From Planctomycetota bacterium (lineage in GTDB: Bacteria; Planctomycetota; UBA8108; SXIK01): a stretch of DNA of 64,000 bases. This document shows, piece after piece, positions 37,014 through 61,156 of the stretch; position 1 is the first letter of the stretch; every line of letters begins with the position of its first letter. The position numbers and the translations under genes are program-made. The notes below the pieces were generated by a model. It saw only the letters and a list, made by a program, of their open reading frames with translations. It made no database searches and was not told the DNA's origin. The DNA is taken from assembly GCA_965223845.1 (NCBI GenBank), contig CBDCXR010000004.1:2752001-2816000 (forward strand), in the 5' to 3' direction.

Positions 37014-37499
37014 TTACCAGCGAGAGGCGCTCGTCCCCTTGATCCGGGCCGGCGTCCGCTCGTCGACGGGAGTTTCACTCGCGAGCTCTCGCGCCCGAGC
37101 GAGGTAGGGCTCCTCACGCTCGAGCACGGCCTCGACGAGCTGATGCGCCCGTGGCCAAGCTTCGAGAGCCGGGAGACGGCGCCGCTTCTCCTCGATCTCG
37201 CTCGCCATGAACCGAATGACGGGACCGAGGAGATACGCCGCGTTCAGGTAGTTGTACTCGGAGAATCGGAGCGGAAACCCGAACGAGGAGGGAACGTGTC
37301 CTTCCTCTTCGAGGACATCGAGGAATGCCGCGCGATTGAGATCGGTCGCGCGGTACCAGTCGATGAAGAAGGAGCGGACCTTGCGGTCGAAGTCGTCACG
37401 GACTTGCACCTCGGCGTTGCCGATCAGGTACCGGATGAAGGAAGTGCTTTCGAGGCCGTAGACCTCTTCGAGAGCGGCGGTGAGTGCGGGGTCGGTCAT
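37014..37499 (-). CDS. Hypothetical helical (ferritin-like?) protein coupled to nuoN
   Basis: ATG overlaps the nuoN stop (TGATG); four-helix amphipathic pattern with a central FPLRFSEYNYL segment. Confidence 0.65.
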   Translation of the reverse strand: MTDPALTAALEEVYGLESTSFIRYLIGNAEVQVRDDFDRKVRSFFIDWYRATDLNRAAFLDVLEEEGHVPSSFGFPLRFSEYNYLNAAYLLGPVIRFMASEIEEKRRRLPALEAWPRAHQLVEAVLEREEPYLARARELASETPVDERTPARIKGTSASRW

Positions 37500-39106
37500 C
37501 AGAGGAAGAGCTCGACATCGAGGGTCGTCTTCAGAATCGCCTCGGCCCGAAGGAACAGATAAAACGTGAGCGCCACCATGCCGAGCACGACGACACGCCC
37601 GAGAACGGACGTCGCGGGCTTCGGTGGAGCGAGCGACTCGTCGGCGGATTCGAAGTACATGGTCTTAGCGATCGCGAGGTAGTAGTAGGCGGAAATCGCG
37701 GTGTTCACCGCGGCTGCGATCGCGAGCACGTAGAACCTCGTCTCGTGGACGTCGATGACGCTCATGAGCAGGTGGAACTTGCCGACGAATCCCGCTGTCG
37801 GAGGGATGCCGATGAGAGAAAAGAGGAACACGGTGAGCGATGCGGCCAGCCACGGAGCGCTCTTCCCCATGCCGCGAAACGCCGAGACTTCCGACGATCC
37901 GGTGCGATTTTCGAGAATGATCAAAACTGCGAACGCGCCGAAGTTCATCGCCAGGTAGGCGAGAAGATAGAAGCCGATCGTCTGCGCTCCGCTGTACTCG
38001 ACGTCGTAGCCGAGCACGGTGAGCCCCATCATCAGATACCCTGCGTGCGCGATCGATGAGTAGGCGAGGAGACGCTTCAAGTTCGTCTGCCAGAGCGCCG
38101 CCAAGTTGCCAAACGTCATCGTCACGATCGAAAGGACGATGAGGAGCGTCCGCCAATCGAGTTCGGCCCAGATGCTCGCCGCGGCCGAGCCGGGTGTGAG
38201 CTCGCTCGTCGAGCCCGAGAGCGCGTGAAAGAACCGGATCGCGATCGCGAATCCGGCCGCCTTGGAGAGCACCGACAAGAACGCGGTGATCGGCGTCGGC
38301 GCGCCCTCGTAAACGTCGGGCGCCCAAAAGTGCATCGGGATCGTCGACATCTTGTAGGCGAACCCGAGGAAGATGAAGAGGAGCGCGACCGTCGCCGCGA
38401 TGATCGTTCGCAGCTGCATCGCGCCCGTGCTGTACACCGGGTCATCGGGATTCCACGCAATCTCGCCCAGCGAAGCGATGGCACCGGAGCCCGTGAGCCC
38501 GAACCAGAGCGAGAATCCGAAGCCCATGATCGCTGCGGCGACGCTGCCGTAAATGATGTACTTAAGCGCCGCCTCGGAACCACGGCGGTCGGTGCGGAGA
38601 TAACCGACGAGGATGTACGAGCAGATGCTGAGGAGTTCGAGCGAGAGAAACATCATGACGAAGTGCGTCGACGACGCCATGAGCATCCCACCGAAAACCG
38701 AAGCGAGCAGGATGAAGTAGTACTCGCCCATGCGCCTCCCCTCGAGCTGCTTCGAGACGAAGCTGAGGAGGATCACCGGGATGGATCCGAGGAGAAAGAG
38801 GAGCTTGAAGAAGTTCGCGAAGGGATCGATCGCGACCATCCCCAAGAAGAGTTCTCGACTGGCGTCGGCGTTGTACTCGATCGTCGAGAGCGGCATCAGG
38901 CAGGCGCACAGCGCGACCCATGCGAGATGCTTCGACGCGCGGAGCGGAAGGAATAGGTCGAGGAGGAGGACGACCATCGCCGCGATCGCGACCTGAAGCT
39001 CCGCCCCGAAATACTCGAGACTCGAGAGGAGCGCCGGGACGACGTTCTCGCCGAACGCTTCCATGTCGGTCTGGAGGAGGAGCGAAGATAGAAACTGTCC
39101 GAACAT
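37499..39106 (-). CDS. nuoN: NADH-quinone oxidoreductase subunit N
   Basis: GEYY, SLELLS, SEAALKY, PMHFWAPDVYEGAPTP, KRLLAYSSIAHAGY, SLIGIPPTAGFVGKF. Confidence 0.95.
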   Translation of the reverse strand: MFGQFLSSLLLQTDMEAFGENVVPALLSSLEYFGAELQVAIAAMVVLLLDLFLPLRASKHLAWVALCACLMPLSTIEYNADASRELFLGMVAIDPFANFFKLLFLLGSIPVILLSFVSKQLEGRRMGEYYFILLASVFGGMLMASSTHFVMMFLSLELLSICSYILVGYLRTDRRGSEAALKYIIYGSVAAAIMGFGFSLWFGLTGSGAIASLGEIAWNPDDPVYSTGAMQLRTIIAATVALLFIFLGFAYKMSTIPMHFWAPDVYEGAPTPITAFLSVLSKAAGFAIAIRFFHALSGSTSELTPGSAAASIWAELDWRTLLIVLSIVTMTFGNLAALWQTNLKRLLAYSSIAHAGYLMMGLTVLGYDVEYSGAQTIGFYLLAYLAMNFGAFAVLIILENRTGSSEVSAFRGMGKSAPWLAASLTVFLFSLIGIPPTAGFVGKFHLLMSVIDVHETRFYVLAIAAAVNTAISAYYYLAIAKTMYFESADESLAPPKPATSVLGRVVVLGMVALTFYLFLRAEAILKTTLDVELFL

Positions 39107-39121
39107 CGTCGACTCCTAGCC

Positions 39122-59112: not shown

Positions 59113-59165
59113 GTGCGGTCCCCGCGCTCGGTGAACCTTCGCCAACTTCGAACGGAGATCCGCGC

Positions 59166-59558
59166 GTGACGGCCGTGTACGTTCTCCCGACTCCTTGCGC
59201 GGCGGCCGCTCGTGTCGTCGAGAGTCTTCGCGTGCCGTCGAGATTCGAGCGCGACCGAGGGCTTCTCGTCGTCGATCATCCCGAGGCGGCGGAGGTCGCG
59301 CTCGCGTGCGGTGCGCTCAGTCACGCGGCGGCACGTGAGCTGTTCGACGCTCGCCGACACCTGCTGCCGCCCCGCCGCGTCGTCGTAGCGCGGTGCGGCG
59401 TCGACTGTCCGCGCGCGCTGCGCACCTACGCCGTCGCGCCACCAGCGAGCGAATGGCTGCCCGTCGACGCTTGGATCGAGTGCTGTGCTCCCGGCCGAGA
59501 CGTACTCGCGCGAGCCCTCGCAGCGAGCGAAGCATCCGACTCGACAGATTCGCCATGA
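59166..59558 (+). CDS. Highly diverged NuoB-like (Fe-S small subunit fold) protein
   Basis: Aligns by eye along its whole length with the nuoB in this window: LPTPCAA~FGLACCA; HPEAAEVALACGALSH~[26 protein letters not shown]~[15 protein letters not shown]...WLPVDAWIECCAP~GYHV...[16 protein letters not shown] follows GGAG; TTG 59109 overlapping the nqrM stop is an alternative start. Confidence 0.75.
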   Translation: MTAVYVLPTPCAAAARVVESLRVPSRFERDRGLLVVDHPEAAEVALACGALSHAAARELFDARRHLLPPRRVVVARCGVDCPRALRTYAVAPPASEWLPVDAWIECCAPGRDVLARALAASEASDSTDSP

Positions 59559-61156
59559 GCGACGCGGGAACAGTGAATGTCTCGGCTCGACCGCGGAGAC
59601 CCGCGCTCGACGAGCAACTGCGCCATCGATTCGGATCGATCGTCAATCGGCGGACCGACGGCGCGAAGGAGGGCTCTCCGTCGATCCTCACCGTCCCGCG
59701 AGAACACGTCCTCCCCGTTCTCGCGTTTCTCGCGCGAGACGCGGATCCTCGCGCGGCGACTCTCTGGGACATCACCGTCGTCGATCACGGGGCCGGGAGG
59801 GACGTTCCGCGCTTCGAGGTCCTCTACTCCGTTCGGGACGCGACGGGCGCCGCGCTCGCCGTCTCGGTGTTCATCGCCGCGGACGATCTCGCCCTCCCGT
59901 CCTGCGTCGACCTCTGGCCGAGCGCCGAGTGGCTCGAACTCGAGGCGGAGGATTTCTTCGGTCTCGAGTTCGACGGCCATCCCCACACGCACCGCCTGTT
60001 TCTCCCCGACGACTACCCGGCGTTTCCACTCCGGCGAGAGATTCCGCTCGCCGGCGTCTCGCGTGAACGCGCGCCGCTCGCCAGCCCACCGCGCGCCGGC
60101 CGAGGGCGCTTCCGGATGGATGGAGTCGGCGACGCGCCGGTCGTCGGACCGAGCATCGAGTGGACGTCGCAAGGGGAGCGCGTCGCCGAGGTCGATGTCG
60201 CCATCGGACGATCGCACCTCGGATTTGAAAAGCGCTTTGAAGGTCTCGGCGCCGAGGAGTGCGTCGAGCTCGCCCGCCACATCGATCGGCGCGCCACGGT
60301 CCACGTCGCGTGGGCCGTCGCCCTCGCCTTCGAGCAGGCATTCGATCTCGCCGTAGATACTCGGGGCGAGACGCTCCGCGTCATCGCCGGCGAGCTCGAA
60401 CGAATCGCCGCGCATCTCGCGTGCGTGCGAGAGACGTTTCTCGCGATCGGATGCGAGCGACTCGCCGGGTCGGCGACGCGGCTTCTCGCGAGTGCGGAGA
60501 CCGCGCTGGCGAGTGCAGCGATCACCGTCGAGTTCGGAAATGCACGCGAGGCCGCGGGCTCGGCGCTCACCGAGGCGCTCGGGCTAGTGTTCGCGCGTCT
60601 TCCGCGTGGCTTGACCGATTTCCGGCAGAACTTTGCGCGGGATCGTTTCGCCGCACTTCGTCTCCGCGGGATCGGCGTCACTCGCGGCGGCTCCGCGGGA
60701 ACGGGTCCCACCGCTCGCGCCGCGGGAATCGCTCGGGATGTCAGACGCGATGCCCCCTACGGAAGATACGACGCACTCGAGTTCGACGTCCCCGTCGGCA
60801 ACGGAGGCGATGCTCTCGCTAGGCTCCAACTCCGCCTCGACGAAACGGTCGAGTCTCTGCGTGTGCTCGCGCGCGAGAGAGACGAGCTCGAGCGGCTCGG
60901 CCCGAGCGACGAGCCGAAGACGGTGGCGAGTGAACCCTCGAACCGTTACGCGCACGCGAGGGTCGAGGCTCCAGACGGCGAGATCACGGCGACGCTGGTC
61001 CTCGAAAAAGACGGAACGCCGCTCCGACTCGGGCTTCGATCCGCATCGTTCCAGCACACCGCCGCGCTGCCGAACATCCTCCGCGCCGAGTCCGTCGAAG
61101 ACGTCGCAGCGATCGGTGCGAGCCTTGGGATCCATTCCGGCCTCGTCGATCGTTGA
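59555..61156 (+). CDS. Highly diverged fused NuoC-NuoD-like protein
   Basis: NuoC part: ITVVD, RFEVLY, WPSAEWLELEAEDFFGLEFDGHP, FPLRRE. NuoD part: GRSHLGFEK, ELERIAAHL, TGPTARAAG...RDVRRDAPYGRY...FDVPVG, VEAPDGE, RSASF, terminal GLVDR. ATGA overlap with the NuoB-like stop. Confidence 0.85.
   Translation: MSDAGTVNVSARPRRPALDEQLRHRFGSIVNRRTDGAKEGSPSILTVPREHVLPVLAFLARDADPRAATLWDITVVDHGAGRDVPRFEVLYSVRDATGAALAVSVFIAADDLALPSCVDLWPSAEWLELEAEDFFGLEFDGHPHTHRLFLPDDYPAFPLRREIPLAGVSRERAPLASPPRAGRGRFRMDGVGDAPVVGPSIEWTSQGERVAEVDVAIGRSHLGFEKRFEGLGAEECVELARHIDRRATVHVAWAVALAFEQAFDLAVDTRGETLRVIAGELERIAAHLACVRETFLAIGCERLAGSATRLLASAETALASAAITVEFGNAREAAGSALTEALGLVFARLPRGLTDFRQNFARDRFAALRLRGIGVTRGGSAGTGPTARAAGIARDVRRDAPYGRYDALEFDVPVGNGGDALARLQLRLDETVESLRVLARERDELERLGPSDEPKTVASEPSNRYAHARVEAPDGEITATLVLEKDGTPLRLGLRSASFQHTAALPNILRAESVEDVAAIGASLGIHSGLVDR

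Follow-up and report, generated by a model that had tools for sequence, protein, structure and literature searches.

What does a complex I operon without genes for the NADH-input module do beside an operon for the NADH:quinone oxidoreductase that translocates Na+ (Na+-NQR), and how did the two come to lie back to back? This question is raised by a 64,000-nucleotide (nt) stretch of DNA, here called the window, from a Planctomycetota bacterium (lineage UBA8108; SXIK01; assembly GCA_965223845.1, contig CBDCXR010000004.1, positions 2,752,001 to 2,816,000 of the forward strand). The explanation that we favor as a whole, with a probability of about 0.6, is that the locus would encode two separate quinone-reducing ion pumps of known kinds, an 11-subunit complex I (nuo11) and an NADH:quinone oxidoreductase of the Na+-NQR type, together with genes for the maturation of the latter. 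Their back-to-back arrangement appears to be inherited, and nqr appears to have displaced a canonical 14-subunit nuo operon with E-, F- and G-like genes (nuo14) in situ, between nadA and cysS; the working of the two pumps set out below is part of the same explanation.

The window has a G+C content of 0.61-0.69 and for that reason contains many long spurious open reading frames (ORFs). Gene calls required family support (Pfam, NCBIfam) or a coding-type codon-position G+C. According to the Pfam and NCBIfam scans, the minus strand carries, in order of transcription, nadA, a gene for a 178-residue membrane protein (TM178), nuoABCDHIJKLMN and a gene for a 161-residue soluble protein (X161), possibly with a VWA-domain gene as the last of the unit. 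The eleven nuo genes are all present and contiguous on this strand: nuoA (48901..49368; PF00507, 110.7 bits), nuoB (47917..48477; TIGR01957, 234.3 bits), nuoC (47331..47819; TIGR01961, 140 bits, cut-off 122.45), nuoD (46145..47290; NF004739, 452.9 bits, cut-off 360), nuoH (44907..46148; PF00146, 369.3 bits), nuoI (44232..44870; Pfam and NCBIfam matches), nuoJ (43584..44132; PF00499, 125.4 bits), nuoK (43179..43583; PF00420, 86.6 bits over residues 38-133, the true start probably lying later in the ORF), nuoL (40946..43123; NF005141, 629.1 bits, cut-off 556), nuoM (39122..40900; TIGR01972, 561.9 bits, matched from residue 136 and with an N-terminal extension of ~85-130 residues) and nuoN (37499..39106; TIGR01770, 360.4 bits, cut-off 332.6). 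The nuoD stop and the nuoH start overlap in ATGA at 46148-46145, so that nothing lies between these two genes, and the family scans together with this overlap bear out an earlier, sequence-only reading in which nuoD runs straight into nuoH and the operon lacks nuoEFG.

Whether nuoEFG lie elsewhere was judged from family searches over the whole assembly (7.93 Mb, 4 contigs, 91.7% completeness). A single match to the NuoF family (Complex1_51K, PF01512) and a single match to the NuoE family (2Fe-2S_thioredx, PF01257) were found, both in the same frame, and the NuoG 4Fe-4S motif (PF10588) gave no match in this assembly. The 49-kDa family matched only nuoD and a fusion protein described below (CD-like), and NuoH was found once in full, with a further weak match just beyond the end of the window. 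The assembly thus holds no canonical nuoEFG set, and its sole NuoE/NuoF-like protein adjoins a formate dehydrogenase. The complex I operon is truly headless, and canonical nuoEFG are absent from the assembled genome.

Diverging from the nadA-nuo row, the plus strand carries nqrA (51646..53070; TIGR01936, 516.6 bits, cut-off 321.05), nqrB (53080..54297; TIGR01937, 538.7 bits, cut-off 349.9), nqrC (54335..55144; TIGR01938, 241.4 bits, cut-off 144), nqrD (55157..55801; TIGR01939, 304.5 bits, cut-off 244.85), nqrE (55803..56402; TIGR01940, 328.5 bits, cut-off 247.55), nqrF (56469..57698; TIGR01941, 709 bits, cut-off 295; Pfam Fer2, FAD_binding_6 and NAD_binding_1), the flavin transferase gene apbE (57709..58827; PF02424, 317.9 bits) and an nqrM-like ORF of 74 residues (58888..59112), which encodes one hydrophobic helix followed by a Cys-rich stretch. 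The best Pfam family of the latter is NqrM (PF04400), at a sub-threshold score (13.7 bits, where the cut-off is 22; E 0.054), and homologues follow apbE in two relatives, G003 (54% identity) and G016 (67%). NqrF is the sole NADH-binding module in the cluster, as had been proposed. The divergent arrangement described earlier, a full nqr operon facing nuo with nadA between them, stands as a layout, with the amendments that nadA is co-directional with nuo and heads the minus-strand row, and that nqrM remains below threshold. Nor does the nqr operon fill the plus-strand side of the interval 37014..61156, the last 1.6-1.8 kb of which (59393/59555-61156) belong to the divergent NuoC-NuoD fusion CD-like. 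The coordinates given in the sequence-only reading take in this fusion, which goes unmentioned in its text.

The history of this layout was read from related genomes. nqrA scored over its cut-off in 8 of 61 genomes, this genome (G000) and 60 relatives. In six-frame maps with the window proteins, the nuo-nqr adjacency recurs in G003, the one nqr-bearing relative of the same family (a different genus, its genome assembled as one contig), where nqrM-apbE-nqrF..A diverges from nadA-TM178-nuoA..N-X161-VWA at 48-90% identity. Outside the family, conservation of the layout fails: nqr lies next to nuo or nadA in none of the five nqr-bearing relatives with a readable upstream flank of 6-19 kb, the contig of the sixth being too short to read the flank. 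Most order-level relatives carry two nuo sets, as judged from CD-like and NuoF searches. When 18 stretches of relatives were fetched and mapped, a canonical nuo14 (A, B, C, D, E-, F- and G-like, H, I and so on) diverged from nadA-TM178-nuo11 in 8 of them, all from order-level relatives (G004, G006, G008, G010, G011, G014, G019 and G020; L022-L030). A partial form, with the nuo14/nadA junction at a contig end, was found in G012, an interrupted form, with the junction present but 11 kb inserted between nadA-TM178 and nuoA11, in G005, and one further record shows nuoB14-nuoA14 diverging from nadA-TM178. The link between nadA and nuo11 holds across the order, in 14 of the 15 loci in which the upstream side of nuoA11 is readable, and in 14 of 15 TM178 is the gene that separates nadA from nuoA.

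The far flank tells the same story. tyrS-cysS converge on nuoN14 in G004 (gap 138 nt), G011 (79 nt) and G019 (43 nt), whereas the gene that cysS faces in G003 is nqrM, 139 nt away; in G000, nqrM is separated from cysS-tyrS by 15.4 kb. What lies between nadA and cysS is therefore nuo14 in all three relatives examined on this flank and nqr in G003 and G000, and because both flanks match, nqr is read as having replaced nuo14 at one locus. The four genomes of the family fit this: the nqr-bearing G000 and G003 have a single PF01512 match each, and the nqr-less G001 and G002 have nuoC-D-E/F runs, a contrast among related genomes that is a pattern and not a statistic. The order ancestor would thus have had a canonical nuo14 operon diverging from nadA-nuo11, with nqr taking the place of nuo14 in the lineage of G000 and G003. 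Two back-to-back nuo operons with nadA between them suggest, in turn, that nuo was long ago duplicated in inverted orientation and that N-module genes were later lost or gained.

Possible remains of the displaced operon lie downstream of the nqrM-like ORF. CD-like (59555..61156, plus strand; PF00329, 99.1 bits, and PF00346, 115.4 bits) is a degenerate fusion of a NuoC-like and a NuoD-like part of 533-587 residues, the ORF opening at 59393 and the likely start being 59555. It is a near-orphan: a search of 5.8 billion proteins gave 13 at E≤0.001, including the query itself, and the closest of the others is 29% identical. Of 87 positions at which 25 NuoD sequences from the order never vary, it keeps 44; the PQHPSTHG stretch is deleted and Arg replaces the Tyr of RMDY, so that the protein lacks the invariant His loop and the quinone-site Tyr of a functional NuoC/NuoD. 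Just past the window end follow a NuoH-like membrane ORF (G000:C4:2816673-2817995, L010:6673-7995, plus strand), for which hmmscan gave no family, and a NuoM-like membrane ORF (G000:C4:2817992-2819254, L010:7992-9254, plus strand) with a sub-threshold Proton_antipo_M match (E 0.0059); the two overlap and are translationally coupled.

We compared these ORFs with nuo14-type and nuo11-type profiles built from the sequences of relatives, leaving aside the L, M and N profiles, which were mixed by the identity cut. The nuo14-type profile scored higher for the C part of CD-like (88.6 versus 47.2 bits), for its D part (112.7 versus 102.9 bits) and for the NuoH-like ORF (22.5 versus 3.4 bits), and the best tblastn match of the NuoM-like ORF was NuoM of the G004 nuo14 (E 1e-5). 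In a tree of NuoC sequences, the branch of CD-like is very long (2.61) and falls outside the nuo11 clade (100/99). The order C-D, H, M, the strand and the location, with nqr on one side and cysS on the other, are what remains of the displaced nuo14 would show. Since homology runs through ~530 codons in one frame despite ~70% divergence, the CD-like frame seems to have been under selection, and we consider it slightly better than an even bet that these ORFs are remains of nuo14, CD-like being a re-used rather than a dead one. No counterpart of CD-like was found in G003, including beside its nqr. CD-like also had full-length matches in G024 and G026, but these belong to nuoABCDHIJKLMN operons of the ordinary kind.

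If nuo14 was lost, the remaining complex has to be judged on its own. The cofactor motifs of the Q-module are intact: the four cysteines of NuoB (CC, GGC, GCPP), the two CxxCxxCxxxCP motifs of NuoI, invariant in 10 of 10 aligned sequences, and the His loop and Tyr of NuoD, whose alignments show the GPQHPSTHG and DRMDY stretches kept; we take these to be the functional residues. NuoI also carries, in this genome only among the 10 aligned sequences, a C-terminal tail of ~40 Lys/Glu/Ala-rich residues (window 44232-44360). Between G000 and G003, both without nuo14, identity is 90% for NuoB, 82% for NuoD and 90% for NuoI, versus 82-87%, 75-81% and 77-84%, respectively, with nuo14-bearing relatives. 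nuo11 is thus equally conserved in genomes with and without nuo14, which argues that the headless enzyme is independent of NuoEFG and never depended on them.

Judged from family membership, NQR would oxidize NADH, reduce quinone and export Na+, and it would be the coupled entry point for NADH after the loss of nuo14. The headless complex would pass electrons from a low-potential donor other than NADH into the same quinone pool while pumping ions; reduction of the quinone pool and ion pumping are its most likely activities because the quinone module is intact and antiporter-like subunits are present. Its donor cannot be NADH through NuoF. The genome has a PFOR-like frame of 1248 residues (G000:C4:6165825-6169241), in which three matched stretches each fall below the TIGR02176 cut-off, and a second 2-oxoacid:ferredoxin oxidoreductase (POR-family) locus (G000:C4 ~6982772-6985198), and an RnfC-type second PF01512 match was not found in the whole assembly. 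These features, together with the independence of nuo11 from NuoEFG, favor reduced ferredoxin from 2-oxoacid:ferredoxin oxidoreductases as the most economical donor, a proposal to which we would give a little less than even odds.

Two alternatives deny the headless complex this independent role. It might borrow the only NuoE/NuoF-type module in the genome and be driven by NADH or formate. This module is a 597-residue fusion, ~2.2 Mb from the cluster, with 2Fe-2S_thioredx, Complex1_51K, SLBB and NADH_4Fe-4S domains, and directly downstream of it lies a molybdopterin oxidoreductase with NuoG-like N-terminal Fer2_4 and Fer4_Nqo3 domains, so that the N-module parts would be at hand (G000:C4:4982918-4987480, L002:5919-10481, minus strand; a multi-haem cytochrome c gene is next). 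However, the frame of this neighbor is broken by an in-frame TGA within NCSRA*HAPTVAGL, which we take to be the usual selenocysteine position of formate dehydrogenases, and the TGA probably encodes selenocysteine. Because the fusion adjoins its own catalytic subunit with such a motif, it reads as the diaphorase of a self-contained, soluble NAD-linked formate dehydrogenase and not as a part of complex I. Fusions with a similar open-frame length (~590-640 residues) are present in most class-level relatives besides a nuo-linked NuoF, which shows that such fusions do not go with nuo14 loss; with the NuoG motif also missing from the assembly, we regard a split enzyme as very improbable. That the headless operon is instead a decaying, functionless leftover beside NQR has in its favor the want of an obvious electron input and a 423-nt spacer (48478..48900, minus strand, without a credible gene) that breaks nuoA from nuoB in this genome only, the distance being 77 nt in G003 and ~20-320 nt in the other mapped loci. 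The spacer has no further copy in the genome and no Rfam match, and its predicted folding does not exceed that of shuffled sequences (z +1.0). Yet all eleven genes are open with strong family scores, the third-position GC of nuoD is 0.88, the same as in nqrF, the cofactor motifs are invariant, the subunits are 56-90% identical to those of relatives, and at least 15 genomes have retained this operon, so that decay can practically be dismissed.

A further alternative, suggested by the sequence-only reading, accepts both enzymes as active and makes the cluster a co-regulated unit, in which the headless complex would run in reverse, the NQR gradient pushing electrons from quinol to a ferredoxin-like acceptor. 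An NADH:quinone oxidoreductase operon, be it nuo14 or nqr, does diverge from nadA-nuo11 in the eight relatives, G000 and G003, the pairing has outlived a change of enzyme, and nadA heads the nuo11 row in nearly all readable loci. The divergent regions tell against common control. A pairwise alignment of the nadA-nqrA regions of G000 and G003 contained no conserved block above background, no 10-12-nt k-mer was common to at least 6 of 10 nadA-upstream regions, and a Rex-box-like consensus pattern (up to 3 mismatches) had no match in the window. Moreover, nqr lies away from nuo in the five other nqr-bearing relatives, an 11-kb insertion in G005 parts nadA-TM178 from nuoA11, and the pairing can be a leftover of the old inverted nuo duplication. 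The direction of catalysis is not readable from sequence, and neither reverse operation nor docking of the formate dehydrogenase module has specific support. Coupling through the quinone pool and reverse electron flow thus stay conjecture, and we hold the co-regulated, reverse-running unit to be unlikely.

The explanation by two independent pumps and a replacement of nuo14 has points against it as well. The direction from nuo14 to nqr rests on parsimony, a few related genomes and the nuo14-like remnants. As to the latter, the NuoC tree does not fix the place of CD-like relative to the nuo14-type rows, and nuoC and nuoD are separate genes in the nuo14 of relatives, in contrast to the CD-like fusion. 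The divergent pairing is not universal, for G001, of the same family, has neither nuo14 nor nqr in at least 4.5 kb upstream of nadA. With an assembly that is 91.7% complete in 4 contigs, nuoEFG may sit in unassembled DNA, and the presence of PFOR is circumstantial with regard to the donor.

Two proteins without a known family accompany nuo11. TM178 (49504..50040, minus strand), a four-helix membrane protein encoded between nadA and nuoA, matched no Pfam or NCBIfam family at E≤0.001 and has 50 relatives among 5.8 billion proteins, none with a Pfam domain. All 20 aligned sequences share H35, H50, H111, H132, E109, W129 and W130. Its AlphaFold2 model (predicted local distance difference test score, pLDDT, 93) consists of four long helices with three of the His near one bundle end, and Foldseek and VIA-align searches with this model returned generic helical bundles only. 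The pattern looked for was that of a membrane b-type cytochrome, with four transmembrane helices and conserved His ligands, an assignment which these observations neither establish nor reject. TM178 is a candidate cofactor-binding accessory protein.

X161 (37014..37499, minus strand) has no Pfam or NCBIfam match but a codon-position GC of 0.68/0.44/0.79, and its start shares TGATG with the nuoN stop, a one-base overlap. It was found in 19 of the 61 genomes: in 3/3, 11/14 and 3/3 genomes of the order families, in 0/38 of the other class-level families, and in 0/1 and 1/1 of the phylum-level families, the last a weak match (E 9.6e-5). The gene directly follows nuoN in the 5 maps that reach this end, and six more genomes have it downstream of nuoC/D11, at a distance of 8.6-9.7 kb and with contig and strand shared. 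When 1.84 billion representative proteins were searched in full with HMMER, 51 members were found, nearly all of ~160 residues, and the alignment shows a nearly invariant C-terminus, KGTSASRW. The AlphaFold2 model (pLDDT 94) is a helical bundle with a flexible tail. Foldseek indicated a likeness to Dps/ferritin (template modeling score 0.65-0.71, best E 4.8e-3, none at E≤0.001), and atlas look-alikes were partly ferritin-like. No di-iron ligands (Glu/His pairs) are conserved in the alignment, in which only Y24, D38, S157, A158 and W161 are nearly invariant. A predicted complex of X161 with NuoD, NuoI and NuoC scored 0.00 (mark 0.32), which counts neither for nor against binding. We regard X161 as a candidate for an accessory or assembly role in the headless complex I.

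Because both proteins are also present in nuo14-bearing relatives, TM178 and X161 are old parts of the nuo11 unit and not a compensation for the loss of NuoEFG. We infer possible roles as subunit, cofactor carrier or assembly factor only from their conserved operon membership, and they would be lineage-specific accessory or assembly proteins. A bolder proposal, which we find doubtful, is a 13-subunit headless complex I in which TM178 and X161, the latter docking by its KGTSASRW tail, would form or assemble the electron-input device; separately, it would take the CD-, NuoH- and NuoM-like ORFs as re-used fossils of nuo14 and the swap as caught midway.

The remaining features of the neighborhood concern nadA and the flanks. 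nadA (50064..51332, minus strand), encoding quinolinate synthase, scored 334.4 bits with TIGR00550 (cut-off 262.9) and 400 versus 294 with NF006878. Its ORF spans 422 residues, of which homology begins only near residue 88-98, as judged from tblastn extents, and the real start probably lies near 51050-51150. The left limit of the divergent nadA-nqrA region (51147..51645) is uncertain, and one sigma-70-like site, a consensus match only, is found at 51322-51295 on the minus strand. No nadA-type riboswitch was detected in an Rfam scan of 34000-64000 at E≤1, whose single row was at chance level and well under the gathering threshold. Around the nuoA-nuoB spacer, two ORFs were rejected as genes, one of 134 residues (48474-48878) with no family and a flat codon-position GC of 0.65/0.64/0.66, and one of 671 residues on the plus strand (48013-50028) with no family, dismissed after a check of codon-position GC.

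Beyond X161, the gene of the VWA-domain protein (35548..36975, minus strand; Pfam VWA_2, VWA_3 and VWA) starts 38 nt downstream, and a homologue follows the X161 gene on the same strand in G003, G009, G002 and G007. Just past it lies a beta-carbonic-anhydrase-like ORF (34989-35495, plus strand; a partial match to the Pro_CA profile). On the other side, the stretch between nqr and cysS holds a protein with a prepilin-type N-methylation motif (61402-61896, plus strand), two BamB/PQQ-like beta-propeller proteins with EF-hand motifs (61999-63495, minus strand, and L010:12047-13570, plus strand), and PKD-domain and GDSL-lipase/FG-GAP proteins. At the same place in G003, prepilin, BamB/PQQ-like, PKD and GDSL-lipase/FG-GAP proteins were not found.

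The locus offers a natural experiment, in which close relatives carry nuo14 and nuo11 side by side and two genomes have swapped nuo14 for nqr and kept nuo11. The change from a proton-pumping to a sodium-pumping NADH dehydrogenase between nadA and cysS would be a clean non-orthologous displacement of a whole respiratory complex. TM178 and X161, operon-encoded and conserved across the order, are candidates for a part in electron input, in cofactor handling or in assembly. Direct tests are limited because the organisms are uncultured. In the literature consulted on 11-subunit complex I with NQR and on planctomycete respiratory chains, a swap at the same nadA-cysS locus is not mentioned, no search having been aimed at it. 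The same holds for nuo14-like remnants and an order-wide nadA-TM178-nuo11-X161 unit, at neither of which a search was aimed, and this silence is not proof of novelty.

The enzyme kinds and their co-occurrence are already known. Partial nuo operons without NuoEFG are widespread (PMC4453560, PMC11238625), it is still to be settled from which donor the bacterial 11-subunit complex I takes its electrons (PMC11238625, PMC7002350), and nqr is reported to have reached Planctomycetes by horizontal transfer (PMC4014512). The co-occurrence of NQR with 11-subunit Nuo, noted in the sequence-only reading, is in print for Bacteroides (PMC7002350) and Marinimicrobia (PMC6143742). As here, Bacteroides fragilis and Prevotella have nuoABCDHIJKLMN without nuoEFG together with a Na+-NQR as NADH:quinone oxidoreductase (PMC7002350, PMC6560451), and deletion of nuo in B. 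fragilis caused no significant loss of NADH:quinone activity, the donor being unknown (PMC7002350). Those bacteria belong to another phylum, and here nadA, a four-His membrane protein and a protein with a possibly ferritin-like fold lie within the nuo row. In the planctomycete cluster nuo11 and nqr are back to back, a layout read here for planctomycete genomes alone. Like Na+-NQR of the Vibrio type, the nqr set has six subunits, each exceeding its NCBIfam equivalog cut-off, and apbE and a short membrane ORF rich in Cys come after them, although the NqrM-like ORF is below the Pfam threshold. The NDH-1 of cyanobacteria and chloroplasts likewise has eleven core subunits without an N-module; its donor is ferredoxin, and extra lineage-specific subunits are needed for delivery (PMC11238625). 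X161 and TM178, by comparison, have no Pfam family, and no homology to these extra subunits was seen, no search having been aimed at it. In Campylobacter jejuni, two other genes stand in place of nuoE and nuoF. Its flavodoxin-dependent complex I shares the trait of a non-NADH donor (PMC4453560, PMC7002350), but that species retains nuoG and lacks NuoE and NuoF (PMC7002350), whereas here nuoD leads straight into nuoH. A parallel to the swap is found in Marinimicrobia, where clades alternate between canonical NDH and NQR and most genomes keep a second, non-canonical NDH without input subunits (PMC6143742). Gain and loss were deduced there from distribution and gene trees (PMC6143742), whereas in the planctomycete genomes the replacement can be followed at one locus, with both flanks and possible remains of the displaced operon.

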